A DNA stretch of 64,000 nt, from assembly GCA_016188775.1 (NCBI GenBank), contig JACPHC010000006.1, positions 618-64,617 on the forward strand. Direction: 5' to 3'. The DNA is from Parcubacteria group bacterium (GTDB lineage: Bacteria; Patescibacteriota; Minisyncoccia; JACPHC01). Below are positions 6,279 to 61,430 of this stretch, piece after piece. Position 1 is the first letter of the stretch. The number at the start of each line of letters is the position of its first letter. The translations under genes were made by a program, and so were the position numbers. Under the pieces are notes generated by a model. It was not told the origin of the DNA. It did no database searches and saw only the letters and a program-made list of their open reading frames with translations.

Positions 6279-6369
6279 GTCATTGCGAGGAGCGGAGCGA
6301 CGAAACAATCTAATAAATATTAGTTCAAATTATGGGATTGCCACGCTCCTTTCAGTCTCTCGCGATGAC
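6279..6369. repeat. Copy B of the family-1 miniature palindromic element
   Basis: CTGTCATTGCGAGGAGCGGAGCGACGAAACAATC ... GATTGCCACGCTCCTTTCAGTCTCTCGCGATGAC. Its right-half core is the reverse complement of the core of the third and fourth tandem units of copy A. Confidence 0.75.
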
Positions 6370-10664: not shown

Positions 10665-11387
10665 ATGAAAAAATTTTTTCTTACAATTTTCATTTCTTTG
10701 TTAATGCCTTTTTTAACATTGGCTATCGTAGCTAAATCAAAACCTCAACTTAATCAGCCGCTTCAAATCATTCTTTCTTGGACGGTTCCCTCTTCAATAC
10801 CTTCTCTTTACAAAGGCCGAGCCTTGCCGACTTTAAATTCATTTGTCCAAGTCAATGCCGATGCAATAAATGGAACGGATAAAAAAGAAAATCTCATCTT
10901 TAAATGGTTTGTTGATAACGACTATCAGCCTTTAGTTTCGGGCCGAAATAAAAATAATTTTAAATTTCAAATTAAAAAAGGGGTGGACGACCTTTATAAT
11001 ATCAAGCTGGAACTTCGCAAAACCGACTCCAGTCAAACGCTCTTGGCGACCAAAAATATTTTTATTCCCATCACCAATCCGGAAATTATCTTTTATAAAT
11101 TAAATAATGAAACGGCGATTAATAAAGAAATAAATATGTCCATTGGCCAATCTATTGATATAACAGCTGAACCTTATTTTTTCAACTCGCCGAAAGGAAA
11201 TTTAAAATATGAATGGACGATAAACGGAGGAAAAGCGAAAACGGAAAAACCGGATATTTTGAATTTAACGGCTCCGGAAGGAAAACTGCTCTCTCCGGTC
11301 TTAAAATCCATTGGGCTTAAAATCAGCAAAACCTTTTTTCCGGCCCAGCAAACGGAAGAATCTTTTAATTTAAAAATTTCCCAATGA
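10665..11387 (+). CDS. Secreted hypothetical protein
   Basis: Signal peptide MKKFFLTIFISLLMPFLTLAIVA. The start at ATG 10665 is preferred over the track start at 10638. Confidence 0.5.
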   Translation: MKKFFLTIFISLLMPFLTLAIVAKSKPQLNQPLQIILSWTVPSSIPSLYKGRALPTLNSFVQVNADAINGTDKKENLIFKWFVDNDYQPLVSGRNKNNFKFQIKKGVDDLYNIKLELRKTDSSQTLLATKNIFIPITNPEIIFYKLNNETAINKEINMSIGQSIDITAEPYFFNSPKGNLKYEWTINGGKAKTEKPDILNLTAPEGKLLSPVLKSIGLKISKTFFPAQQTEESFNLKISQ

Positions 11388-12271
11388 AAAAAATCATTAT
11401 TGTTGTTATATTTTTAGTTTTTTTCGTTAATTTAGCTCAAGCGGTTGAATTGACCTATCCGTCCGTTGGGCAAGGCATAACCACTCCCGCCGGCGCCACC
11501 AGCGATTTAGGAAATTATCTCGCATATGTTTACACTCTCGGCTTAGGCGCTTCCGGCATTGCCGCTTTGGCAATGATTGTCTGGAGCGGCATCAAATATA
11601 TGACTTCGGAAATTGTCACTTCCAAAGAAGAAGCGCGCAAAGATATTCAAGCCGCTCTTTTTGGACTGGCTTTGCTTCTGGGCGCTTATTTGATCTTAAA
11701 CACCATTAATCCTAATTTAGTCAGCTTAACTAATCCTGAGCTTGAAAGGCCGGCTGCGGTTCAAGGATATTGCGGCACGTCCGGACAAAAACAATCTGAA
11801 TTTACTCCGCCAAGTTGTTGCTCTGGCTATCAATCTGATAATGAAGGTATATGTAGATACGTCGGTCTAACTGAAGGCAGCGCTTGCCCTGCCACGATAA
11901 CAAACGGCGTTAACTGCTCAAGCGACCAGGTTTGCTCTAATAACAAATGCAAAGTTAAAGCATCATTCAATGAAACCTGCAGCGATGTGAAAAATAGTTC
12001 AGATTGCCTTTCAGGCCTCACCTGCATATCAACAGGGATAATTGGCGGTAATTGTCATAAGCCAACGGGCCAAAGAGTCGAAAGCGAATATTGCGGAGAT
12101 AATATTAATAGTTGCGGTTCCGGATTAAAATGTTCTGCCGGTATTTGCGTGGTCAGTACTTCTACCACAGCAAAAACAACTAACGAAGCCTGCACCAGTG
12201 GTCCTGAATGCCAAAGCAATCGATGCGAATACCCTGATAGCAGATCAACTAGTAGAACGTGCCAACCTTAA
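11384..12271 (+). CDS. VirB2/TrbC-like T4SS pilin domain (signal peptide plus two hydrophobic helices) fused to a ~180-aa Cys-rich C-terminal extension
   Basis: Signal MKKIIIVVIFLVFFVNLAQA. Helix 1 is LGASGIAALAMIVWSGIKYM, followed by a polar turn TSEIVTSKEEARKDIQ, then helix 2 AALFGLALLLGAYLILNTINP. The C-terminus has four C-x(5-7)-C-x-SG-x-C-x(3-8)-C-like modules. Confidence 0.5.
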   Translation: MKKIIIVVIFLVFFVNLAQAVELTYPSVGQGITTPAGATSDLGNYLAYVYTLGLGASGIAALAMIVWSGIKYMTSEIVTSKEEARKDIQAALFGLALLLGAYLILNTINPNLVSLTNPELERPAAVQGYCGTSGQKQSEFTPPSCCSGYQSDNEGICRYVGLTEGSACPATITNGVNCSSDQVCSNNKCKVKASFNETCSDVKNSSDCLSGLTCISTGIIGGNCHKPTGQRVESEYCGDNINSCGSGLKCSAGICVVSTSTTAKTTNEACTSGPECQSNRCEYPDSRSTSRTCQP

Positions 12272-12277
12272 TAGACT

Positions 12278-12676
12278 ATGCAATTTCAAGTCCCCCAATT
12301 CATTGAAGTGGAAGATAAAATCATCGGCCCTCTCACGCTCAAACAATTTCTTTATATCGCCGCTCCCGTAGGCTTTACTTTTCTTTTAAAATTTTTCTTA
12401 AGTCTGCCGTTTATGATTCTTTTAGGCGGGCCGACCGTGCTTTTCGGTTTCGCTCTGGCGTTTTACAAACCCGGCGGCCGGCCTTTTATCGTAATGATAA
12501 AATCTTTTTTTAATTTTCTGTCCAAGCCCCGTCTTTATATGTGGCAGCATCCGCGAACAAAAGAAATCACTCTGGAAAAAGAACTTATTCCCCAAACTAA
12601 AAGATTAAAAGAGCAAAAATGGAAATTGAACATATTTTCCGCCAAAGGCGGATCCGCCTCTGGCGGGAAAAAATAA
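12278..12676 (+). CDS. PrgI/VirB3-like small membrane protein of Gram-positive-type T4SS
   Basis: 132 aa. The N-terminus MQFQVPQFIEVEDKIIGPLTLKQFLYI is followed by two TM helices, and the gene sits immediately upstream of VirB4. The family is recognised from memory. Confidence 0.5.
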   Translation: MQFQVPQFIEVEDKIIGPLTLKQFLYIAAPVGFTFLLKFFLSLPFMILLGGPTVLFGFALAFYKPGGRPFIVMIKSFFNFLSKPRLYMWQHPRTKEITLEKELIPQTKRLKEQKWKLNIFSAKGGSASGGKK

Positions 12677-12798
12677 ATTTTGACAATTTGTTATTTAAAT
12701 TAAAATTAAAGTATGGCACCCGCCTTCGCTAAAAGCTTCGGCGGATGCTCATAATTGTAGCGAAATTTATTTCGCTATAATTATAAATTTCGACAATT

Positions 12799-13449
12799 AT
12801 GGCAAAACCTGAAGCGTCGACTCAACAATTTGTTATAATAGATCAAATCCGCGATAACGTGGTGTTTTTAAAAGACGGACAAATGCGCGGAATTTTAGCC
12901 GCCTCTTCTCAAAATTTCGCCCTAAAAACCGAAGAAGAACAGCAAGCGACTCTTTATCAATTCCAAAATTTTCTAAACACTTTGGATTTTTCTTTGCAAA
13001 TTGTCGTTCATTCCCGCAAATTGGATATCGCTCCTTATCTTTCCTATTTGGAAGAGGCGACCAGAAAAGAAGACAACGAACTGATGAAAATTCAAACACA
13101 AGAATACACGGAATTTATCCGTTCTTTTGTCCAAGGCTCAACGATTATGACTAAAAGTTTTTATGTTGTGGTGCCATTCGCTTTACTGGCCGGCGCGAAA
13201 AAAACCGGCGGAATTTTGAGCCTTTTCAAAACCGCGGCTGCTCCGGCCAAAACCTTGGCTAAAATGTCCGAAAAAGAATTCCAGGCTTATAAAAACCAGC
13301 TGGATCAAAGAATGGATCAGGTGGCGGCCGGGCTGACCAGGACCGGCACTCGGACCATTTCGCTCGACGCCGACAGCCTGACGGAACTTTTTTATGAAAT
13401 TTATAATCCCGGCGAAGTCAAACAAAAACCGAGAGAAATACCGGAGTAA
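12799..13449 (+). CDS. N-terminal ~216 aa of a Gram-positive-type VirB4 (TcpF/PrgJ/TrsE-like), separated from the ATPase body by an in-frame 219-bp insert
   Basis: The motif FVIIDQIRDNVVFLKDGQMRGILAASSQNFALKTEEEQQATLYQFQNFLNTLDFSLQIVV matches the conserved start of VirB4-like proteins. It is in the same reading frame as 13669..15444. Confidence 0.5.
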   Translation: MAKPEASTQQFVIIDQIRDNVVFLKDGQMRGILAASSQNFALKTEEEQQATLYQFQNFLNTLDFSLQIVVHSRKLDIAPYLSYLEEATRKEDNELMKIQTQEYTEFIRSFVQGSTIMTKSFYVVVPFALLAGAKKTGGILSLFKTAAAPAKTLAKMSEKEFQAYKNQLDQRMDQVAAGLTRTGTRTISLDADSLTELFYEIYNPGEVKQKPREIPE

Positions 13450-13485
13450 TGAATGGACATATAATAAAAATATTCTACAATCGAA

Positions 13486-13567
13486 GTCATTGCGAGGCGA
13501 TTAAATCGCCGAAGCAATCTCTCGACAATTGAGATTACTTCGTCGGCTTATGCCTCCTCATAATGAC
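13486..13567. repeat. Copy C of the family-1 miniature palindromic element, lying inside the gap that splits VirB4
   Basis: GTCATTGCGAGGCGATTAAATCGCCGAAGCAATC ... CTCATAATGAC. Confidence 0.7.
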
Positions 13568-13668
13568 AAACAAATTATTTATTTGATTTGAGAATAGTAA
13601 TAGTTACTTATAGGATATTTGGCGAATGCATAATAATGCTATCAAATCTCACAATTAAAATTTGAACC

Positions 13669-15444
13669 ATGACTAATAATACTGAAACAATCCTAACTGA
13701 AGGAACGGTTTCAATCAAAGATATTATCGCCCCTTCGGCTCTGGAAGTTAACGCCAATTTTATAAAAATCGGCGGCAAAATCGCCCGCACTTTTTTTGTT
13801 ATTTCCTACCCAAAATTTTTAACCACGAATTGGCTTTCGCCGATTATAAATCTGGATAAAATTTTGGATGTTTCTTTATTTTTTCACCCGGTTGACACCG
13901 CTATAGTTTTAAAAAACCTCCGCAAAAAAGCCGCCCAAGTCGAATCCCAATTAATGGCTCGGGAAGAAAAAGGCCAAACCCGGGATCCGGTGCTGGAAGC
14001 CGCCATTGCCAACATTGAAGAATTAAGGGATCGGTTGTCGCAGGCCACGGAAAAACTTTTTAAATTTGGACTTTATTTTACTTTATGGGGAGAATCTTTG
14101 GAAGAATTGGAAAAAACAGAAAATGAAATTCGGACAATGCTGGAAGGCCGACTGATAATGACCAAAACAGCCACTTATCAGCAGGAAGAAGGATTTAATT
14201 CAGCTCTGCCAACCAATGACGACCAACTCCAAATCACTATGCCTATGAACACCGACACCATTTCCAGCGCTTTTCCTTTTGTTTCTTTTGACCTAACTTC
14301 CAATAAAGGCATACTTTACGGCATCAACCGGCACAATAACAGCCTGATAATTTTTGACCGGTTTTCTTTGCCTAATTACAACTCTCTGATTTTTGCCACC
14401 TCGGGCGCGGGCAAATCTTACACCACCAAACTAGAAGTTTTGCGAGCAATGATGCTGGGCTCGGACGTGATGATTTTAGATCCGGAAAATGAATACGAAT
14501 ATCTATCCCAGACAGTCGGAGGAAGTTTTTTTCGCATATCTCTGACGTCTAAACATCATATTAATCCTTTTGATCTGCCAAGACCGCGATCGGACGAAAA
14601 TCCGGCTGATGTTTTAAGATCCAATATTATTAATCTGGTCGGCCTGCTTCGCATTATGCTGGGCGGCCTGAGCCCGGAAGAAGACGGCTTGATTGACCGG
14701 GCCATCACTGAAACTTACGCCGCGCGAAACATTACCGTGGAAAGCGATTTTTCCAACGCCGAGCCGCCTTTGATGTCCGATCTTCAAACAGTTTTAGAAA
14801 GCCTGGAAGGCGGAAAAAATTTAGCCACGAGACTGGAAAAATACACCCGAGGCAGTTACGCCGGATTTCTTAATCAGCCGTCCAATGTTGATATCGGCAA
14901 CCGCCTGGTTGTTTTTTCTATTCGGGATATGGAAGACGAGCTCCGTCCAATCGCGATGTATATTATTCTCCATTTCATCTGGAACGAAATCCGTCGGGAA
15001 ATTAAAAAACGAATTTTAATAGTGGATGAAGCCTGGGTTTTAATGAAACATGAAGACGGCGCTTCTTTCCTTTTTGGGATTGCCAAAAGAGGAAGGAAGT
15101 ATTATTTGGGACTTACCATTATCACGCAAGACGTGGCGGATCTTATGAATAGCCCTTACGGTAAGCCCATTGTCACCAATTCCTCTATGCAACTTTTGTT
15201 AAAACAATCGCCGGCCACGATTGAAACGGTTGTTAAAACATTTAATCTGACGGATGAAGAAAAATTCCTGCTGCTGGAATCAAACGTCGGGGAAGGAATA
15301 TTTTTTGCCGGACTCAAGCACGCGGCTATAAAAGTAATCGCCTCCTACGCCGAAGATCAAATTATCACATCGGATCCTTCTCAACTACTGGCGATTCAAA
15401 AAGCCAAAGAGCAATTAGTCCAAGCTGAAGAAAAAGTGATTTAA
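13669..15444 (+). CDS. VirB4/TrbE/CagE-family T4SS ATPase (central and C-terminal parts)
   Basis: Walker A is LIFATSGAGKSYT and Walker B is RILIVDEAW. The N-terminal region IIAPSALEV..IGGKIARTFFVISYPKFL..WLSPII is typical of VirB4. Walker A sits at residue ~243 of this ORF. That only fits the usual position if the 216 aa of the upstream ORF are added. Confidence 0.85.
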   Translation: MTNNTETILTEGTVSIKDIIAPSALEVNANFIKIGGKIARTFFVISYPKFLTTNWLSPIINLDKILDVSLFFHPVDTAIVLKNLRKKAAQVESQLMAREEKGQTRDPVLEAAIANIEELRDRLSQATEKLFKFGLYFTLWGESLEELEKTENEIRTMLEGRLIMTKTATYQQEEGFNSALPTNDDQLQITMPMNTDTISSAFPFVSFDLTSNKGILYGINRHNNSLIIFDRFSLPNYNSLIFATSGAGKSYTTKLEVLRAMMLGSDVMILDPENEYEYLSQTVGGSFFRISLTSKHHINPFDLPRPRSDENPADVLRSNIINLVGLLRIMLGGLSPEEDGLIDRAITETYAARNITVESDFSNAEPPLMSDLQTVLESLEGGKNLATRLEKYTRGSYAGFLNQPSNVDIGNRLVVFSIRDMEDELRPIAMYIILHFIWNEIRREIKKRILIVDEAWVLMKHEDGASFLFGIAKRGRKYYLGLTIITQDVADLMNSPYGKPIVTNSSMQLLLKQSPATIETVVKTFNLTDEEKFLLLESNVGEGIFFAGLKHAAIKVIASYAEDQIITSDPSQLLAIQKAKEQLVQAEEKVI

Positions 15445-15455
15445 AAAAATAATTT

Positions 15456-16580
15456 ATGTCTAGACGCAATCTAATAATTTTAATATCGGCGGTGATTTTG
15501 ATAATAATAACTATTATTTTAATCCTGACAGTTTTTTTGCGCCGGCCCGGCCCATTACCAACGCCCGCGCCTTCAGGAGGGGGGTTTATTATCCCCGAAG
15601 AACCGACTCTTCCAACGGTTTCTAAAGAAAAGGTTCGCGCTTTGAGCGAAAATCCGGCCGGCGCTTTGCATATAGTCAATGATCGGCCGCGATTCTGGGA
15701 TAAAGAAACCGGCTTCATTTTCGAAACCAGCCCTGACGGCGCCGAACCAAAAAGAATTTCTCGCGATCAACTGGCCGATGTTGTCAATATCCTGCCGCTT
15801 TCCGACAATGAAAAAATTGTTTTGGCGGAGAAAGAAAATAACCAAATAAAATATTCAATCTACAACCTTGTTTCTGGGACAAAAAATCTTCTGCCAAACG
15901 GGATTAAATCAATCGCCGTTTCACCAGACGGGAAAAAAATCGCTCTCTATTTAACTGACGGCCAAAAAAATAAACTGGTTATTACCGACGCGGACGCCAT
16001 AAACGCTAAAACAGTCGCGGAACTTAACCTGGATAAAATAAATCTCTCCTGGACCAACGCCAATATGATTTTAATGGCTGAACCGGCCTCAGGTCTGGCC
16101 TCAAGCAGTATTTTAAGTTTTAACGCGGAAAAAAAGCAACCGGATTTGATTGTTGATAATTTATTCGGACTGGAAGCTATTACCTCTTCTGATTTCTCAA
16201 AAATGATTTATTCAAAAACTAATCAAGCCGGCGGCGGCCTTTCTCTTAATCTTCTGGATTTAAGCACAAGAGAAGCGAAAAGCCTGGCTATCGGCACTTT
16301 CGCTTCCAAATGCGTTTTTTCGAAATCTAATCGAGAAATTTTTTGCGCCGTTCCGTCTGAACTGAAATCTTCAATATTGCCGGATGATTACTATAAAGGA
16401 ATATTGAGAACCAATGATTCTTTATTTAAAATCAACCTGGAAACAGCGGAATTTAGCGAAATAATAAACGGCTTTGAACGTCCGTCTTTCGATATTGTCA
16501 AACCTCTTTTAAATTCGTCAGAAGACTTTTTATTCTTTATAAATAATTTGGACGACAAGCCTTACTCAATTAAACTTTAA
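15456..16580 (+). CDS. Membrane-anchored protein with a TolB-like/beta-propeller-like extracytoplasmic domain
   Basis: N-terminal TM helix, then repeated SPDGKKIALY-type blades. Confidence 0.4.
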   Translation: MSRRNLIILISAVILIIITIILILTVFLRRPGPLPTPAPSGGGFIIPEEPTLPTVSKEKVRALSENPAGALHIVNDRPRFWDKETGFIFETSPDGAEPKRISRDQLADVVNILPLSDNEKIVLAEKENNQIKYSIYNLVSGTKNLLPNGIKSIAVSPDGKKIALYLTDGQKNKLVITDADAINAKTVAELNLDKINLSWTNANMILMAEPASGLASSSILSFNAEKKQPDLIVDNLFGLEAITSSDFSKMIYSKTNQAGGGLSLNLLDLSTREAKSLAIGTFASKCVFSKSNREIFCAVPSELKSSILPDDYYKGILRTNDSLFKINLETAEFSEIINGFERPSFDIVKPLLNSSEDFLFFINNLDDKPYSIKL

Positions 16581-17022
16581 TCACGGGTTTAATAATAACA
16601 TAACGCTCCGGCTCATTTCCTTCGCTTTCGGTTGTCAAATCAACTTCTCCGGCCAGCGCCAAATGAGCCGTTCTTCTCTCATAAGCGGACATTGAAGGCA
16701 AAGCAACGACTTTTTTAAAAAAGCGCGCTTCTTTCGCTTTTTCCAAAACCATTTCTTTAATCTCTTTCTCTCTGAATTCGCGCCAATTATTCACGTCAAT
16801 TATAAATGAAGGAGCTTCGCCCATCCGTTTCCGAATCACCAGATAAATCAGGTGATTAAAAGCCGCCAAAACTTCCGGCTTATTATTTGTCCAGCGATCG
16901 AGATCGCCGATAAAAATATTATATTTATTTTTATCGGCGTCTTGAGATAATTCAATCGTATGCTCAAAGCCCAAAACATTGATAAATTCTCTGATTAAAT
17001 TTTTTAATTGGTCTTCGTTCAT
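16570..17022 (-). CDS. jag: Jag/KhpB-like R3H-domain RNA-binding protein
   Basis: 150 aa in the conserved position downstream of yidC. The C-terminus has R3H-like ...YERRTAHLALAGEVDLTTESEG. Confidence 0.6.
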   Translation of the reverse strand: MNEDQLKNLIREFINVLGFEHTIELSQDADKNKYNIFIGDLDRWTNNKPEVLAAFNHLIYLVIRKRMGEAPSFIIDVNNWREFREKEIKEMVLEKAKEARFFKKVVALPSMSAYERRTAHLALAGEVDLTTESEGNEPERYVIIKPVIKV

Positions 17023-17151
17023 CTCGCACGATGCAGATCGCGATCGAAAGACGCAATCCGCTTGTATTAATTTTTTATAATTTCAAATTTATAATATTCG
17101 CGTATATCCCGAGAAGAAGCGATCGCGACTTCGTACGGGATAAAACTAAAT

Positions 17152-17898
17152 TCAATTCTTCTGTATTTTAGATTCTAGATTCTGATTATTGACGTGTTTT
17201 TCTTTATAAGGAAACCGTAAGGACAGATACTGCTGTAAAATAGCAAAGAGATTAAAAGTTGTCCAGTAAAGAGCAATAGCCGCTGGCCAAGATAAAGAAA
17301 TAAAGCCGATCAGGGCCGGAAAAACATAGACCATCTGTTTGTTTAATATATTGGAAAGATCGCCGGGGCTGGTGGTTTTTTGATCTTTCGGCAACATCAT
17401 TTTTGACTGCCAAAATTGAGAAACGCCGGCTAAAGCCGCGAGCGCTATATTGCGAGTCTGACTCAAATCAATAAAGCCGAGAAAAAGGGGATTGATTTGA
17501 CCCGGATTTTTCACGAAATCGTACAAAAAATTTAAAGAAGACTGATCAAGTCCGACGCGAAAAACCTTCAAAAGAGCGAATAAAACCGGAATTTGAATCA
17601 AAATAGTTAAAAAACCGGAAAAAGGATTAACTCGATGTTCTCGATAAAGATTGAGCAATGCCCGGCTTTGTTCTTCTTTGCTTTCTTTAAAATTTTTTTG
17701 AATTTCCTTAATTTTCGGCTGCAGCAAAGTCATTTCTCTTTGTGACTTTAACGCTTTTTGAGAAAGAGGATAAAGAATCAAACGGACAAAAATTGTCAGT
17801 AAAATAATTGCCACGCCAATATCGGGAACAAGGTCGTAAAAAAATATTAATAAATTAAATAGCGGCAGAAAAAGAAAATTATTGAATAATGAAGACAT
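17152..17898 (-). CDS. yidC: Membrane protein insertase YidC/Oxa1 (short form)
   Basis: 248 aa with 5 TM helices, in the rnpA-yidC-jag context. Confidence 0.75.
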   Translation of the reverse strand: MSSLFNNFLFLPLFNLLIFFYDLVPDIGVAIILLTIFVRLILYPLSQKALKSQREMTLLQPKIKEIQKNFKESKEEQSRALLNLYREHRVNPFSGFLTILIQIPVLFALLKVFRVGLDQSSLNFLYDFVKNPGQINPLFLGFIDLSQTRNIALAALAGVSQFWQSKMMLPKDQKTTSPGDLSNILNKQMVYVFPALIGFISLSWPAAIALYWTTFNLFAILQQYLSLRFPYKEKHVNNQNLESKIQKN

Positions 17899-17906
17899 TT
17901 TTATTA

Positions 17907-18254
17907 TTAATTAATGATGTTATTTTGTTTTAAAATTAATTCAAAAGTTTTTTGAATATCTTTAAAATTTGCTTTGGCCGCTTCCGGAGTCAAGCTAATC
18001 ACAATATCGAAACTTTTTGAAAATGCGGATGATTTAAGAATCGCCCGAGCCGCTTCTCTCATCTTTCTTTTTAAGCGATTCCTTAAAGTTGATTTTTTAG
18101 ACACTTTGGTTGAAATAATAAAACCAAATCGGCTTTCCGGCAGATAATTCGGCGAATATCTTAAAATTAAAAAGCCGCTCTTAAAAATCCGACCGCGCTG
18201 AAAAACATTATCAAAATCTTTTTTTTCAGTTATCCGATTGCGTCGAGCTAACAT
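17907..18254 (-). CDS. rnpA: Ribonuclease P protein component
   Basis: 115 aa basic protein lying between rpmH and yidC. Confidence 0.75.
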   Translation of the reverse strand: MLARRNRITEKKDFDNVFQRGRIFKSGFLILRYSPNYLPESRFGFIISTKVSKKSTLRNRLKRKMREAARAILKSSAFSKSFDIVISLTPEAAKANFKDIQKTFELILKQNNIIN

Positions 18255-18389
18255 TTAAACCGTGATATTCCAGCGCCCTTTTTTCTGGCGGCGTTTTAAA
18301 ACTTTTTTACCCCCGGCCCGGCTTTTTCTTTTTAAAAATCCGTGCGTCTTTTTACGTTTTTTCTTTTTAGGCTGATAAGTAATGGACAT
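18255..18389 (-). CDS. rpmH: 50S ribosomal protein L34
   Basis: Hand translation of the minus strand gives MSITYQPKKKKRKKTHGFLKRKSRAGGKKVLKRRQKKGRWNITV. It is absent from the ORF track because it is shorter than 60 aa. Confidence 0.85.
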   Translation of the reverse strand: MSITYQPKKKKRKKTHGFLKRKSRAGGKKVLKRRQKKGRWNITV

Positions 18390-18502
18390 ATTTTAATTAT
18401 TTAATTAAGATTAGCCTAGCATTAAATTCATCAACAATCAATCCACACTTTATTCACTAAATTTATTCTTGACTATATATATTCACAGCTTATTATAAAA
18501 AT

Positions 18503-19891
18503 ATGGGGGACGAAAAAATATTTTCAAAAGAAGAATTATGGCAAGCGGCCCTTGGCGAAATAGAGCTTAATATTTCAAAAGCGAATTTTTTAACTTGGCT
18601 TAAAAATACTTCCATTGATTCCATTAAAGAAGGAGTAGTGGTGATTAGCGTGCCTAATCATTTTTCAAAAGAATGGCTGGAAAATAAATATCATAAATTT
18701 ATTTTCCAAGCTTTAAAAAAATTAATTTCGGAAATCAATAAAATTGATTATATTATCAACGCCAATGCGGAAAATAAAAATACCGCCGCTCCGGAAAAAG
18801 AAAAAACTAAAAAAATCAATGAAACAGCCTTATTAAAAGAGCAACTTAGTCTCGCTGAAATTGAAATCAATCCAGAAACAAATCTTAATCAACGCTATAT
18901 GTTTGATACTTTTATTGTCGGATCTTCCAACGAACTGGCGCACGCGGCGGCCTTAAGCGTGGCTAAAAATCCCGGTCAGACCTACAATCCTTTGTTTATT
19001 TATGGAGGAGTGGGGCTTGGCAAAACTCATCTTTTGCAGGCAATCGGCAATGAAGCCCAAAAAAAAGAGAAATTAAGAGTAAAATACGTCACTTCGGAAA
19101 AATTTACCGAAGAAGTGGTAACCGCTATTCAAAACCACACAATGAATCAATTAAAAAATAACTATCGTAAAACCGATATTTTAATTGTCGATGATATTCA
19201 ATTTTTAGTCGGTAGAGAAAAAACTCAAGAAGAATTTTTTCATCTTTTTAATACTTTATACGAAAAAAATAAACAAATTATTCTTTCCTCGGATCGACCT
19301 CCTAAATCTATTGCCACGCTCGAAGACCGTCTGCGGTCGCGTTTTTCCGGTGGAATGATCGCGGATATCGGATATCCGGATTTTGAAACGCGTCTCGCTA
19401 TTTTAAAAACGAAAGTCGCGGCTCATAATTTTAAAATAAATGAAAATATTTTAATTTATATCGCCAACGCTATTACTCAAAATATTAGAGAAATTGAAGG
19501 CTGCCTAACACGACTAATCGCTTTTACTCGTCTAACTAAAAAAGAACCCACCGAAGAAGAAGCTATTAGAATACTTAATGAAGTGATAAAAACTCCTAAA
19601 AAAATTTTTAACATTAAGCAAATAATAAAAACAGTGGCTAATTTTTATGATATTGAGGAAAAAGATTTAATAGCTAAAAACCGACAAAAAGAAATTGTTA
19701 AACCCCGGCAAGTCGCGATGTATCTTTTAAGAGAAGATTTAAAGTCTTCTTTCCCGTATATCGGAAAAAAATTTGGCAATCGCGATCACACGACAGTTAT
19801 TTACGCTTGCGAAAAAATTAATGATTTAATTAAAACAAATGAAACAATAAAACAGGAAATTGGGATAATTCGCGAACGTTTAAATAACTAG
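18503..19891 (+). CDS. dnaA: Chromosomal replication initiator DnaA
   Basis: AAA+ Walker A GGVGLGKTHLL. The C-terminal DNA-binding domain is present. The gene is divergent from rpmH and upstream of dnaN. Confidence 0.95.
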   Translation: MGDEKIFSKEELWQAALGEIELNISKANFLTWLKNTSIDSIKEGVVVISVPNHFSKEWLENKYHKFIFQALKKLISEINKIDYIINANAENKNTAAPEKEKTKKINETALLKEQLSLAEIEINPETNLNQRYMFDTFIVGSSNELAHAAALSVAKNPGQTYNPLFIYGGVGLGKTHLLQAIGNEAQKKEKLRVKYVTSEKFTEEVVTAIQNHTMNQLKNNYRKTDILIVDDIQFLVGREKTQEEFFHLFNTLYEKNKQIILSSDRPPKSIATLEDRLRSRFSGGMIADIGYPDFETRLAILKTKVAAHNFKINENILIYIANAITQNIREIEGCLTRLIAFTRLTKKEPTEEEAIRILNEVIKTPKKIFNIKQIIKTVANFYDIEEKDLIAKNRQKEIVKPRQVAMYLLREDLKSSFPYIGKKFGNRDHTTVIYACEKINDLIKTNETIKQEIGIIRERLNN

Positions 19892-24744: not shown

Positions 24745-24831
24745 AAGTCATTCTAAAATTTTTTAGGCACCCTCGGCGGATTATATAATTTGATTAAAGA
24801 GCCTCGACCTTAAAAATTTTTAGAATAACTT
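24745..24831 (-). repeat. Family-2 ~86-bp element, with termini AAGTATYCTAAAAATTTTT / AAAAATTTTTAGRATACTT and a core containing TTATATAAT. It lies 40 bp upstream of ruvC in the same orientation
   Basis: The reverse complement aligns with the copies at 38299-38384 and 39737-39822, with a few mismatches. Confidence 0.7.
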
Positions 24832-24934
24832 CTTTAATTATTATAAGCGAAAGAAAGGGGTTTTTGAAAATCGTCTTTAAAAATCCCTTTCGCTTATTTT
24901 AAAAAAATATTTCGCAAGAGGCCTATAATATTAT

Positions 24935-37884: not shown

Positions 37885-37973
37885 GTCATTGCGAGCGACC
37901 GAAGGAAGCGAAGCAATCTCAAAAACTCGCATAAATATAAGATTGCCACGGCGTCTTCGACGCCTCGCAATGA
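37885..37973. repeat. Copy D of the family-1 miniature palindromic element
   Basis: GTCATTGCGAGCGACCGAAGGAAGCGAAGCAATC ... GATTGCCACGGCGTCTTCGACGCCTCGCAATGAC. Confidence 0.8.
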
Positions 37974-38009
37974 CAAAAAGCGAATTCTCTAATGGTTTGC
38001 GGAATAAGT

Positions 38010-38276: not shown

Positions 38277-38298
38277 ATTTGTTAAAATAATGATAAAT

Positions 38299-38384
38299 AA
38301 GTATCCTTAGAAATTTTTGAGGTCGAGGCGCTTTAATGAAATTATATAATCCGCCGAGGGTACCTAAAAATTTTTAGGATACTT
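38299..38384 (+). repeat. Family-2 ~86-bp element upstream of the ccdA-like gene
   Basis: AAGTATCCTTAGAAATTTTTGAGGTCGAGGCGCTTTAATGAAATTATATAATCCGCCGAGGGTACCTAAAAATTTTTAGGATACTT. Confidence 0.8.
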
Positions 38385-38473
38385 ATTGAAAATATCATAT
38401 TCCAAAATAGGAAGTCAAATCAATCAAATTCGTAAATTTTGTTTGCAAAATAAAATTATGGTATAATTTTTAT

Positions 38474-39715
38474 ATGGAACAAAATCCAATGCCCCAAAAC
38501 TTAACTAATCAAACCGAAGCCAGATGGCGCTATTTGTTTGTTATTTTGGCTATTTTGCTTTTTCTTATTTTTATAGGTGGCCTTTTTTGGATTTTTACGG
38601 TTTTCAAGGGTTCGCCCATAGGTTTGGGCTGGTTTTTATTCAGTTTTGCCGCCGGGCTTTCAATGATCGTTCTTCCTTGCACTTTGCCTTTGGCCTTTGT
38701 GATCGTGCCTCTTTCAATGGGCAAGGGCTACGTCAAGGGATTTTTAATCGCCTTGAGTTTTGGTTTGGGCGTGGCCATTACTTTAAGTTTTTACGGGGTT
38801 TTGGCCGCGATTTTAGGCAAGGCGATTTTGGGAGCGGCGGCTGGAATCGAGGTGGTTAAAAATATTTTTTACGTTATTGCCGGTATTTTCGCCATTATTT
38901 TTTCTTTGGGCGAGCTGGGATTTTTAAAAATTCGTCTGCCGAGCTACACGGGCGCGGCCCCGGGGTTTATTCAAAGAAAAAATGATATTTTGAAAGCTTT
39001 GCTTTTGGGGCTGTTTTTGGGTAATATCGGCATTGGCTGTCCGCATCCGGCCACCCCGATTATTTTGGGGCAAATTGGCATCGTGGGCAATGTTTTTTAC
39101 GGCTGGCTTTTATTTTTTATTCACGCTATTGGCCGAATCATTCCGCTTTTACTGCTCGCGGTTTTAGGAATTTTGGGCATTAACGCGACCAAGGGCTTGC
39201 TCAAGCATAAAGACGCGATTGGCCGAGCCACGGCTTGGGGAATGGTTTTTGTCGGCGCTTTTCTTTTCACTTTGGGATTTTTTTCTCACGATTGGTGGGT
39301 CGCCTCCGGCACTCATTCGCTTTTGGAAGTTGTGACACAAGAAGAGCGGATTATTGATATTTTAGGCCAACGCTTAGGAGCCGGCCGCGGTCATGCCCAC
39401 GGTTTTGAAGAAATCATTGGCAAGGCCGGATTTTTCGGATTGCCGTTATGGCTGGGCAACTGGGTTTTTGTAGCTTTGATGGTTATTCCTATCTGGTGGC
39501 ATTGGCGGCGGGAAAAAAAACGAGTGGCGATTTTGCCGGAGCCGGAAAAAATCAATGAGAACAAGGTATTATTATGGAAAAAATGGTTTTTTATCGCTCT
39601 GACCATTCTTTTAGCCGTCTTATTTATTTGGGCGATTCCTCTTTGGTTCCGGCATCAGGCTGACGAACATAAGGAGATGATTGATAATCACGTTGGCCGG
39701 ATTGAAAATAAATAA
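38474..39715 (+). CDS. CcdA/DsbD-family thiol-disulfide transfer membrane protein (extended)
   Basis: Polytopic. The motifs are Cys1 in LSMIVLPCTLPL and Cys2 in GIGCPHPATP. Confidence 0.55.
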   Translation: MEQNPMPQNLTNQTEARWRYLFVILAILLFLIFIGGLFWIFTVFKGSPIGLGWFLFSFAAGLSMIVLPCTLPLAFVIVPLSMGKGYVKGFLIALSFGLGVAITLSFYGVLAAILGKAILGAAAGIEVVKNIFYVIAGIFAIIFSLGELGFLKIRLPSYTGAAPGFIQRKNDILKALLLGLFLGNIGIGCPHPATPIILGQIGIVGNVFYGWLLFFIHAIGRIIPLLLLAVLGILGINATKGLLKHKDAIGRATAWGMVFVGAFLFTLGFFSHDWWVASGTHSLLEVVTQEERIIDILGQRLGAGRGHAHGFEEIIGKAGFFGLPLWLGNWVFVALMVIPIWWHWRREKKRVAILPEPEKINENKVLLWKKWFFIALTILLAVLFIWAIPLWFRHQADEHKEMIDNHVGRIENK

Positions 39716-39736
39716 TTTTTAGTTTTTTAATTTAAT

Positions 39737-39822
39737 AAGTATTCTAAAAAATTTTTGAGGTCGAGGCGCTTTAATGAAATTATATAATCCGCCGAGGGTA
39801 CCTAAAAATTTTTAGGATACTT
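39737..39822 (+). repeat. Family-2 ~86-bp element upstream of the thioredoxin-like gene
   Basis: It is nearly identical to 38299-38384. Confidence 0.8.
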
Positions 39823-39849
39823 ATTGAACATTATTTTATCAAAAAGTTT

Positions 39850-54357: not shown

Positions 54358-54458
54358 GTCATCGCGAGCGAGCCCTAAGGCGAGCGCGGCGATCTCGCGT
54401 TTATATACAGAAGCGTAGGATTGCCGCGTCGCTCGCTTTGTTCGCTCCTCGCAATGAC
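54358..54458. repeat. Copy E of the family-1 miniature palindromic element (GC-rich core variant)
   Basis: GTCATCGCGAGCGAGCCCTAAGGCGAGCGCGGCGATC ... GATTGCCGCGTCGCTCGCTTTGTTCGCTCCTCGCAATGAC. Confidence 0.75.
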
Positions 54459-56138: not shown

Positions 56139-56213
56139 GCCCTCGTAGCTCAACGGATAGAGCGTAGGCCTCCGGAGCCTAAGACAGGGGTTCAATTCCT
56201 CTCGAGGGCACCA
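56139..56213 (+). tRNA. tRNA-Arg (anticodon CCG)
   Basis: Folded by hand. The acceptor stem is GCCCTCG/CGAGGGC, the D arm GCTC-AACGGATA-GAGC, the anticodon arm TAGGC-CTCCGGA-GCCTA, and the T arm AGGGG-TTCAATT-CCTCT. The discriminator is A and the CCA end is encoded. Confidence 0.85.
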
Positions 56214-56216
56214 AAA

Positions 56217-56407
56217 TAAAAAACCCGCGCCCGGGTTTTTTATTTTGGTGTATATTTACGACCGCGCTCGAACTTGCTTTAACCCCACACCTAAATTTTA
56301 GGTATGGGGGTTTATCAAAAATTCCTGAACTAAGGAAGTCCGCCGCCAGCCGCCGCTCTGAACGAGTAGGCAGCGGGGCTTCACTTGCGGCTCGTGGGGA
56401 AAATTCT
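56217..56407. repeat. Left copy of a ~190-bp near-perfect inverted repeat, beginning 4 nt after the tRNA CCA end
   Basis: Its reverse complement matches 59756-59946 with only 2 mismatches. It includes the hairpin AAAACCCGCGCCCGGGTTTT and a GC-rich block. Confidence 0.9.
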
Positions 56408-59755: not shown

Positions 59756-59946
59756 AGAATTTTCTCCACGAGCCGCAAGTGAAGCCCCGCTGCCTACTCG
59801 TTCAGAGCGGCGGCTGGCGGCGGACTTCCTTAGTTCAGGAATTTTTGATAAACCCCCATGCCTAAAATTTAGGTGTGGGGTTAAAGCAAGTTCGAGCGCG
59901 GTCGTAAATATACACCAAAATAAAAAACCCGGGCGCGGGTTTTTTA
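59756..59946. repeat. Right copy of the ~190-bp inverted repeat
   Basis: See the left copy. An extended -10 element TGGTATAAT at 59957-59965 follows immediately. Confidence 0.9.
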
Positions 59947-61343: not shown

Positions 61344-61430
61344 GTCATTGCGAGTCCCGCTTTAGCGGGGCGTGGCAATCTCTTCTTTTGACTAATTTTA
61401 GAGATTGCTTCGCTTTCAGCTCGCAATGAC
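61344..61430. repeat. Copy F of the family-1 miniature palindromic element
   Basis: GTCATTGCGAGTCCCGCTTTAGCGGGGCGTGGCAATC ... GATTGCTTCGCTTTCAGCTCGCAATGAC. Confidence 0.8.

Follow-up and report, generated by a model that had tools for sequence, protein, structure and literature searches.

A conserved two-gene VirB4 with a REP/REPIN-like hairpin doublet in its spacer in a Parcubacteria genome

The window, i.e. the whole stretch of 64,000 nucleotides of Parcubacteria DNA that was analysed, contains a T4SS-like locus that lies on the chromosome of a Parcubacteria/Patescibacteria genome, close to dnaA. The local T4SS block begins with a gene (11384-12271, plus strand) for a Cys-rich secreted or membrane protein with a weakly T4SS-pilin-like (VirB2-like) N-terminal region (Pfam T4SS_pilin at E 2.7e-4, with 21.4 bits where 26.6 are required); a pilin-like gene is found at the same position in a Pontibacillus plasmid locus. 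It is followed on the same strand by a gene for a small PrgI/VirB3-like membrane protein (12278-12676; Pfam PrgI with 29.9 bits, the cut-off being 27), by ORF1 (12799-13449, plus strand) and by ORF2 (13669-15444, plus strand). ORF1 encodes a TrsD-like stand-alone protein of 216 aa with homology to the first ~210 residues of VirB4, and ORF2 encodes a VirB4-type ATPase of 591 aa, in which the second half of the N-terminal domain is joined to the C-terminal P-loop domain. The gene order PrgI, TrsD-like protein, ATPase was the same in relatives, and no relaxase gene was found near the locus in the window. ORF1 and ORF2 share one reading frame and are separated by an intergenic spacer of 219 bp (13450-13668, 32% G+C), which contains six in-frame stop codons (at 13450, 13462, 13465, 13561, 13564 and 13663) besides the TAA of ORF1 itself. 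In frame, distance and stop codons the locus was thus as described in the initial annotation.

ORF2 matched the NCBIfam model NF045971 (CD1110-family VirB4-like ATPase) with 383.6 bits, the cut-off being 325, over model positions 183-728 of 752. The Pfam models P-loop_TraG, AAA_10 and DUF87 were all above their cut-offs, and PDB entry 4ag5, the C-terminal domain of VirB4, was matched with an E value of 4.6e-39. The P-loop NTPase domain carries a Walker A motif (ATSGAGKS, residues 243-250, plus-strand positions 14395-14418), found where it had been expected at residue ~243, and a Walker B motif (ILIVDE, residues 449-454, plus-strand positions 15013-15030). A complete N-terminal domain is not part of this polypeptide, which starts at position 183 of 752 in the CD1110 model and at position 285 of 894 in the VirB4_plasma model; the missing N-terminal part is ORF1. 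ORF2 is full length, intact and, with a dN/dS of 0.05, under purifying selection.

ORF1 was homologous to the N-terminal ~200 residues of VirB4, and it is likewise intact and, with a dN/dS of 0.12, under purifying selection. It matched positions 13-142 of 201 in the NCBIfam TrsD/TraD model NF041427, but scored 24.2 bits and did not reach the curated threshold of 200. Its label PF26593 ('TraC-like') comes only from precomputed annotations; a local Pfam scan of ORF1 gave no match, and a sequence search of the PDB with ORF1 yielded nothing meaningful, so that a fold search was needed. That ORF1 represents the first ~200 aa of VirB4 and ORF2 the rest, as proposed earlier, was borne out by alignment to full-length VirB4, in which the two ORFs tile one protein without overlap. 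In a fused homologue of 797 aa (P0163), residues 1-215 correspond to ORF1 and residues 226-796 to ORF2 (56% identity for ORF2); one NCBIfam VirB4 model was covered consecutively, at positions 99-233 by ORF1 and at positions 285-893 by ORF2; and residues 445-735 of TrwK were aligned by residues 237-534 of ORF2, i.e. with an offset of 208 residues. The existence of the fused protein shows that this clade has seen at least one event of fusion or splitting.

In all 82 related loci compared, the ORF1 homologue lay downstream of prgI/virB3, ended with a stop codon and was directly followed by a separate ORF2, mostly at a distance of -4 to +20 bp; no uninterrupted gene was found among these loci. The same gene pair was present on plasmids of Pontibacillus and Geobacillus (Firmicutes). 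The best 120 of 2147 ORF1 homologues were 209-225 aa long, 149 of the best 150 representatives were stand-alone proteins, and among the 270 homologues listed the fused protein was the only exception. Homologues of 300-440 aa were considered as truncated fusions, but the nine that were inspected consisted of the N-terminal domain and a disordered Pro/Thr/Gln-rich tail, with no ATPase. As the two ORFs were in frame in only 19 of the 82 loci (23%), their shared frame in the window is uninformative; it is inherited and a matter of chance. Joining of the two ORFs by an intein, an intron, read-through or recoding was rejected in view of the six in-frame stops, the lack of an Rfam match in the gap and the low number of loci in frame. 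A pair of TrsD and VirB4 has been published as widespread in Patescibacteria and as essential in Ca. Southlakia epibionticum, and the T4SS of Patescibacteria has been reported to be essential for the epibiotic lifestyle (PMC12102498). The statement on TrsD rests on that article, as TrsD is not named in the main text of Guglielmini 2014 (PMC4027160). Judged from these sequence comparisons, a two-gene VirB4, consisting of a small TrsD-like N-terminal protein and an ATPase, is the normal, conserved form in Patescibacteria and an arrangement that was already known. Among the three options offered by the initial annotation, a genuinely two-polypeptide VirB4 was thereby upheld, while inactivation of the gene by a MITE was not.

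The closest relative (L001; 81% aa identity for ORF1 and 90% for ORF2) has no insert and still carries two ORFs, its junction reading ORF1-TAA-TAA-ATG-ORF2. The start of ORF2 is ATGAyTAATA in both the window and this relative, and both flanks of the gap are collinear with it to the base. This points to an ancestral spacer of ~3 bp that gained ~216 bp by insertion in the lineage of the window, and the insert is a lineage-specific insertion of repeat hairpins into a short intergenic spacer, not a break in one gene. The view that VirB4 had been split in frame by the insert had to be abandoned, since the two-gene state is conserved and older than the insert. The spacer showed no similarity to any of 83 related loci, and an Rfam search of the gap gave no match at E <= 1. 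No terminator-like site was found in the gap and promoter-like sites were only weak, while the gap RNA folded better than shuffled sequences (z -2.8). As a target-site duplication, only ATG at both borders or a loose resemblance of ~14 nt to the start of ORF2 could be proposed; the former is too short and the latter unconvincing in AT-rich DNA. Spacers of at least 35 bp between ORF1 and ORF2 were observed in ~21 of the 82 loci, i.e. in about a quarter of the related species. What this junction held in other species was either palindromes of unrelated sequence or genes for 23S-IVS proteins between inverted repeats. Long spacers were about as common at the neighbouring junctions (19/78 upstream, 14/62 downstream) and co-occurred in the same genomes, and the trsD-virB4 junction was therefore rejected as an insertion hotspot.

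Of the gap, only the hairpin modules of ~35 nt, such as the 35-nt hairpin at gap positions 37-71, are found again elsewhere in the window; its remaining ~150 bp are unique, AT-rich sequence. One module on the plus strand (13486-13519) is an exact match to the pattern and reads GTCATTGCGAG-GCGATTAAATCGCC-GAAGCAATC; it shares 94% identity with the copy at 1392-1426 and folds into an outer stem, ATTGC/GCAAT, and an inner hairpin (-13.9 kcal/mol). A degenerate inverted module on the minus strand (13533-13567) was found by a relaxed pattern search and forms a convergent doublet with the first, with a spacer of 13 nt; its outer stem is kept through two-sided changes (ATTAT/GTAAT). The repeat element noted earlier as copy C of family 1 is thus present in the gap, but in two copies instead of one. 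The pattern GTCATTGCGAG-N8-30-GCAATC occurred eight times in the window, with none expected, and the relaxed search yielded 15 copies in the window, all of them intergenic and arranged in seven clusters. In metagenome contigs, 65 of 111 copies had an inverted partner within 90 nt, and the motif was found in contigs of 28-70% G+C. The family thus comprises short, imperfect, intergenic palindromes in multiple copies, often in inverted doublets. The earlier designation as a MITE did not hold, as there were no terminal inverted repeats, no full-length copies and no convincing target-site duplication; because only the hairpin modules recur, the family looks REP/REPIN-like instead. The insert shows hairpin repeats colonising even operon junctions of 3 bp.

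The REP, REPIN and BIME sequences of proteobacteria are strictly intergenic, multi-copy, imperfect palindromes of ~35 nt, which typically occur as inverted doublets and whose stems are kept by compensatory changes. The family in the window resembles them in all of these respects, while the range of 28-70% G+C is far broader than that of a typical REP family. To our knowledge, the hairpin sequence is unrelated to the REPs of E. coli or Pseudomonas. No RAYT (IS200/IS605-type Y1) transposase was detected among the 25 proteins of the 64-kb window that were scanned against Pfam. When the literature was searched for the repeat and for its spurious peptides, only unrelated primers were matched.

The locus is very probably a conserved two-gene VirB4 in which a REP/REPIN-like hairpin doublet was inserted in a tiny spacer and the coding sequences were left intact. 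The lineage would make VirB4 from two adjacent genes, one for a TrsD-like protein of ~215 aa, equivalent to the first ~210 residues, and one of ~590 aa for the rest with the P-loop ATPase domain, the ancestral junction presumably consisting of a stop codon, 0-20 bp and a start codon. In the lineage of the window, a convergent doublet of the ~35-nt hairpin and unique AT-rich sequence, ~216 bp in all, would have been inserted there without damage to either coding sequence or to the native ATG of the ATPase gene. The TrsD-like protein and the ATPase may then assemble into one VirB4-like unit, the former probably in contact with the PrgI/VirB3-like protein. Transcription of the operon would continue through the hairpins, and ORF2 might now be translated by independent initiation on an AT-rich leader without an SD motif, as most genes of the genome, and not by stop-start coupling. 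Such a leader is typical of the window, since only 8 of its 54 ORFs carry an SD-like motif.

A different reading accepts the insert as real and the genes as intact, but supposes that expression was changed, either by loss of coupling, with less VirB4 and a mildly deleterious polar effect, or by the doublet serving as an element of mRNA processing or stability, by which the ratio of TrsD to VirB4 is set. REP/BIME sequences between malE and malF in E. coli provide a parallel for the latter, and such an element would also resemble the RNase III-cleaved stems of rRNA intervening sequences. This reading draws on the coupling-compatible spacers of most relatives, which were lost in the window, on the folding of the gap RNA, on the unrelated palindromes and IR-flanked 23S-IVS-protein genes at the same junction in other species and on the two-sided changes by which the stems of the family were kept. 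However, the equal frequency of long spacers upstream and downstream in the same genomes speaks for a repeat load across the whole genome and against selection at the junction, and the gap contains neither a terminator-like site nor an Rfam match; a change in expression is therefore rather improbable. Slightly more doubtful still is the proposal that GTCATTGCGAG…GCAATC is a very widespread, unnamed REPIN-like element which, between trsD and virB4, would act at the level of the mRNA, through its processing or through protection of a 3' end, so that the two VirB4 halves are synthesised uncoupled from each other and in a ratio set by the element.

An origin of the 219 bp as an assembly artefact, by repeat-induced mis-joining or as a collapsed repeat, had been considered from the outset. 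In its favour, the repeat family in the gap occurs at seven sites of the contig, and short-read assemblers may be misled by repeats of this kind. However, a Logan contig of run SRR12113420, independent in assembler only as it may share reads with the MAG, showed no difference over 3702 bp that take in the whole gap. An artefact would also have to fall exactly in the 3-bp spacer of the closest relative, and long spacers at this junction are not peculiar to the window; this explanation is accordingly very unlikely. That a MITE was inserted in a once continuous virB4 of ~800 aa, splitting and inactivating it and leaving the T4SS dead, is effectively refuted: the tiling in one frame, the stops and repeat element in the gap and the single fused homologue speak for it, but the separate ORFs in every related locus and in the insert-free relative, the stand-alone homologues, the rarity of a shared frame, the full length and strong purifying selection of both ORFs and an insert without terminal inverted repeats or full-length copies stand against it. 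The concern that VirB4 had been inactivated was dispelled, since it is encoded in the two-gene form usual for Patescibacteria, by ORFs that are both intact and subject to purifying selection; as far as can be judged from sequence, VirB4 is not broken and there is no reason to doubt that the T4SS-like system can work. Where genome scans of Patescibacteria, or of some plasmids of Firmicutes and archaea, show a short ORF next to a VirB4 that lacks its N-terminus, this should not be taken for a pseudogene.

Full-length VirB4 proteins, such as TrwK of R388 (PDB 7o41/7o42), those of the CD1110 family and VirB4 of Mycoplasma ICEs, are wholly covered by ORF1 and ORF2 together, and the two ORFs agree with them in the ATPase motifs and in the fold of each part. 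They are single polypeptides of ~800-900 aa, whereas the window encodes two, with the break at about residue 208 of TrwK, inside the N-terminal domain. The locus is closest in arrangement to the MPF-FATA-like T4SS of Patescibacteria, in which (Microb Genom 2025, PMC12102498) a small, remote homologue of the VirB4 N-terminus is likewise encoded directly upstream of virB4, genes for a PrgI/VirB3-like protein and a VirB2-like pilin are adjacent, no relaxase gene is nearby and dnaA is close. It differs from that system in its trsD-virB4 spacer, which is 219 bp and not a few bp owing to the inserted hairpin-repeat doublet; inserts in this spacer are not discussed in the passages of that article that were consulted. 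Staphylococcal TrsD/TraD and TrsE/TraE (pGO1 subclass; NCBIfam NF041427) also consist of a stand-alone protein of ~200 aa followed by a shortened VirB4-type ATPase, as in the window. ORF1 is a remote relative of the pGO1-subclass TrsD and not a member by NCBI's criterion (24 bits vs 200), and pGO1 encodes a plasmid conjugation apparatus with a relaxase, whereas the locus in the window is chromosomal.

To determine whether the initial annotation of this locus holds, the two ORFs and the 219 bp between them were compared with VirB4 proteins, profile models and related loci. ORF1 (12799-13449, forward strand, 216 aa) encodes a TrsD-like protein and ORF2 (13669-15444, forward strand, 591 aa) a VirB4-type ATPase. 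As had been claimed, both lie in the same frame and are separated by a gap with stops (219 bp, 32% G+C, six in-frame stops in addition to the TAA of ORF1), and the Walker A motif, placed at residue ~243 of ORF2, was found at residues 243-250 (ATSGAGKS), with a Walker B motif (ILIVDE) at residues 449-454. Pfam analysis of ORF2 gave P-loop_TraG, AAA_10 and DUF87, and only the tail of the N-terminal models TraC_F_IV and CagE_TrbE_VirB. ORF2 also exceeded the curated threshold set for the CD1110-family VirB4 model, with a match beginning at model position 183 of 752, matched the structure of the VirB4 C-terminal domain (4ag5, E 4.6e-39) and aligned with TrwK, the residue numbering being shifted by 208. 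In the Mycoplasma-ICE VirB4 model (894 positions), ORF1 residues 3-125 matched positions 99-233 and ORF2 residues 6-566 matched positions 285-893. In a single fused homologue of 797 aa (P0163), residues 1-215 correspond to ORF1 (42% identity) and residues 226-796 to ORF2 (56% identity). These several independent lines of alignment indicate that ORF1 and ORF2 together tile VirB4, as the initial annotation had proposed.

Both genes are intact and constrained. Comparison with the nearest relative's locus, L001, gave dN/dS values of 0.12 for ORF1 and 0.05 for ORF2, and no frameshifts or stops were detected in either ORF. An SD-like motif, even loosely defined, was present at only 8 of the window's 54 ORFs, indicating that an AT-rich leader lacking an SD, as in ORF2, is normal for this genome. 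An assembly artefact, one of the explanations offered for the gap, is unlikely, since a Logan contig from run SRR12113420 matches the window without a single difference along 3702 bp that span the entire gap.

The initial annotation had read the locus as one virB4 gene split in frame by the insert. This reading was rejected in favour of its other option, a genuinely two-polypeptide VirB4. A locus comparison comprised 80 loci from separate species genomes and further loci from earlier searches; in all 82 loci analysed, the counterpart of ORF1 ended in a stop and that of ORF2 was a distinct gene directly downstream, mostly with a spacer of -4 to +20 bp. No fused ORF1-ORF2 gene was present among the 82. 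A word-indexed search yielded 2147 ORF1 homologues, the best 120 of which were all 209-225 aa long, and an exhaustive search of 50%-identity representatives gave 1892 matches, with ORF1-type proteins standing alone in 149 of the best 150. L001, which is 81% (ORF1) and 90% (ORF2) identical to the window, has two genes and no insert; its junction (...CCGGAA-TAA-TAA-ATG-ATTAAT...) consists of two stops and a 3-bp spacer, in the same frame. The start of ORF2 is retained in the window (ATGACTAATAAT vs ATGATTAATACT), which places the ~216 extra bases after the stop(s) and before this native start. The pair was in frame in only 19 of the 82 loci, and the shared frame reflects inheritance from an L001-like ancestor together with an insert length divisible by three. 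Nine representatives of 350-440 aa combined the ORF1-type domain with a Pro/Thr/Gln-rich low-complexity tail and lacked the ATPase. In this subset of the stand-alone TrsD-like proteins (P0225, P0201, P0220, P0188, P0146, P0180, P0212, P0237 and P0230) the low-complexity C-terminal tails are 100-230 residues long and rich in Pro/Thr/Gln/Ala.

VirB4 is therefore encoded here by two genes, and the hairpin insert lies between them. The repeat family expected in the gap was present, in two copies rather than the one described: a hairpin at 13486-13519 (+) and a degenerate inverted one at 13533-13567 (-). The exact pattern GTCATTGCGAG-N-GCAATC occurred eight times in the window (expected: 0), and the wider GTCATTGCGAG…GCAATC family comprised 15 copies in seven clusters, all between ORFs (including 1217-1426, 6279-6369, 13486-13567, 37885-37974, 54358-54458 and 61344-61430). 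The outer stem (ATTGC/GCAAT) is conserved in every copy and the inner hairpin varies; two-sided changes preserve the stems, e.g. ATCGC/GCGAT at 54358 and ATTAT/GTAAT at 13533. The best match to the gap hairpin was the copy at 1392-1426 (94%). Only this 35-nt hairpin recurs in the window, the remaining ~150 bp of the gap being unique; the gap showed no similarity to any related locus, no Rfam match and no terminator-like site. A scan of metagenome contigs for the GTCATTGCGAG…GCAATC motif gave at least 120 stretches, and the 80 loci analysed ranged from 28 to 70% G+C. Among the matches listed, 65 of 111 copies had an inverted partner within 90 nt, indicating that the convergent doublet of the gap is the usual unit. 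The motif is very common in metagenome contigs, mostly as convergent doublets. The element's behaviour is REP/REPIN-like and not, as initially suggested, that of a MITE. The window proteins scanned included no RAYT-type transposase, and no transposase was linked to the family; a search of the literature gave neither a name for the hairpin sequence nor a relevant mention of it. All that sets this locus apart is that, in its lineage, this widespread repeat was inserted into a 3-bp spacer.

About a quarter of the related species had long trsD-virB4 spacers (35-496 bp), containing unrelated palindromes. In three species the spacer held a gene for a 23S-rRNA-intervening-sequence protein (23S_rRNA_IVP, PF05635) with inverted repeats on either side; the gene is complete at L005:4315-4756 and L060:4643-5128 and broken at L057:4616-5111. 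'Empty' palindromes of similar style were observed at this junction in L018, L030, L035, L065, L066 and L070. A hotspot at the trsD-virB4 junction was rejected, since long spacers were as frequent at the neighbouring junctions (upstream 19/78, downstream 14/62) and tended to co-occur at all junctions within a genome; they reflect the genome-wide repeat load.

Other repeats were also observed in the window. The prgI-trsD spacer (12677-12798, 122 bp), in which the independent Logan contig L084 ends 51 bp upstream of ORF1, contains small hairpins, e.g. TAGCGAAAT-TT-ATTTCGCTA, and a TTGACA/TATAAT-like pair. Two inverted repeats of 191 nt (56217-56407 and 59756-59946, 99% complementary), just downstream of the window's only tRNA (56139-56210), enclose an ORF of 174 aa and the gene for an fn3/PQQ beta-propeller protein of 917 aa, and the segment between them may be invertible or mobile. 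Direct repeats of ~98 nt (38296-38393 and 39734-39831, 96% identical) flank a DsbD_TM-domain gene (38474-39715), and an inverted copy (24750-24840, ~86%) is found beside ruvC, at a distance of 13 kb.

VirB3 anchors VirB4 to the membrane in the T4SS structures of R388, according to the summary given in PMC12102498. From this, the TrsD-like protein and the ATPase would assemble into a VirB4-like unit, whose contact with VirB3/PrgI is expected to be made by the TrsD-like N-terminal piece. The hairpins would be read through in transcription and translation of ORF2 would be initiated independently. The hairpins could conceivably regulate how the mRNA is processed or how stable it is, but this idea is unsupported.

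According to PMC12102498 (2025), TrsD outnumbers every other T4SS component in Patescibacteria (2,272 homologues, 1,664 of them associated with virB4), its homologue in Ca. Southlakia epibionticum is listed among the essential genes, and T4SS loci often lie near dnaA. The window agrees with the systems described there in gene order (pilin-like, prgI, trsD-like, virB4) and in the vicinity of dnaA, as jag (R3H), yidC and dnaA follow within 3 kb (16570-19891); this places the T4SS block close to the presumed replication origin, a location described for many Patescibacteria. A tblastn search of plasmids revealed a separate ORF1 homologue in Pontibacillus and Geobacillus, where it is flanked by a PrgI-family gene and a gene for a VirB4-like ATPase and overlaps the latter by 11-14 bp. 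The haloarchaeal Salinibaculum plasmid NZ_CP129994.1 (L087:1517-4744) differs from the window in carrying a VirB4-like system with another domain partition: the TrsD-like domain makes up the C-terminal portion of a protein of 1075 aa, and an 843-aa DUF87 ATPase is encoded directly downstream. The trsD/virB4 split is an already described, conserved arrangement that extends beyond Patescibacteria.
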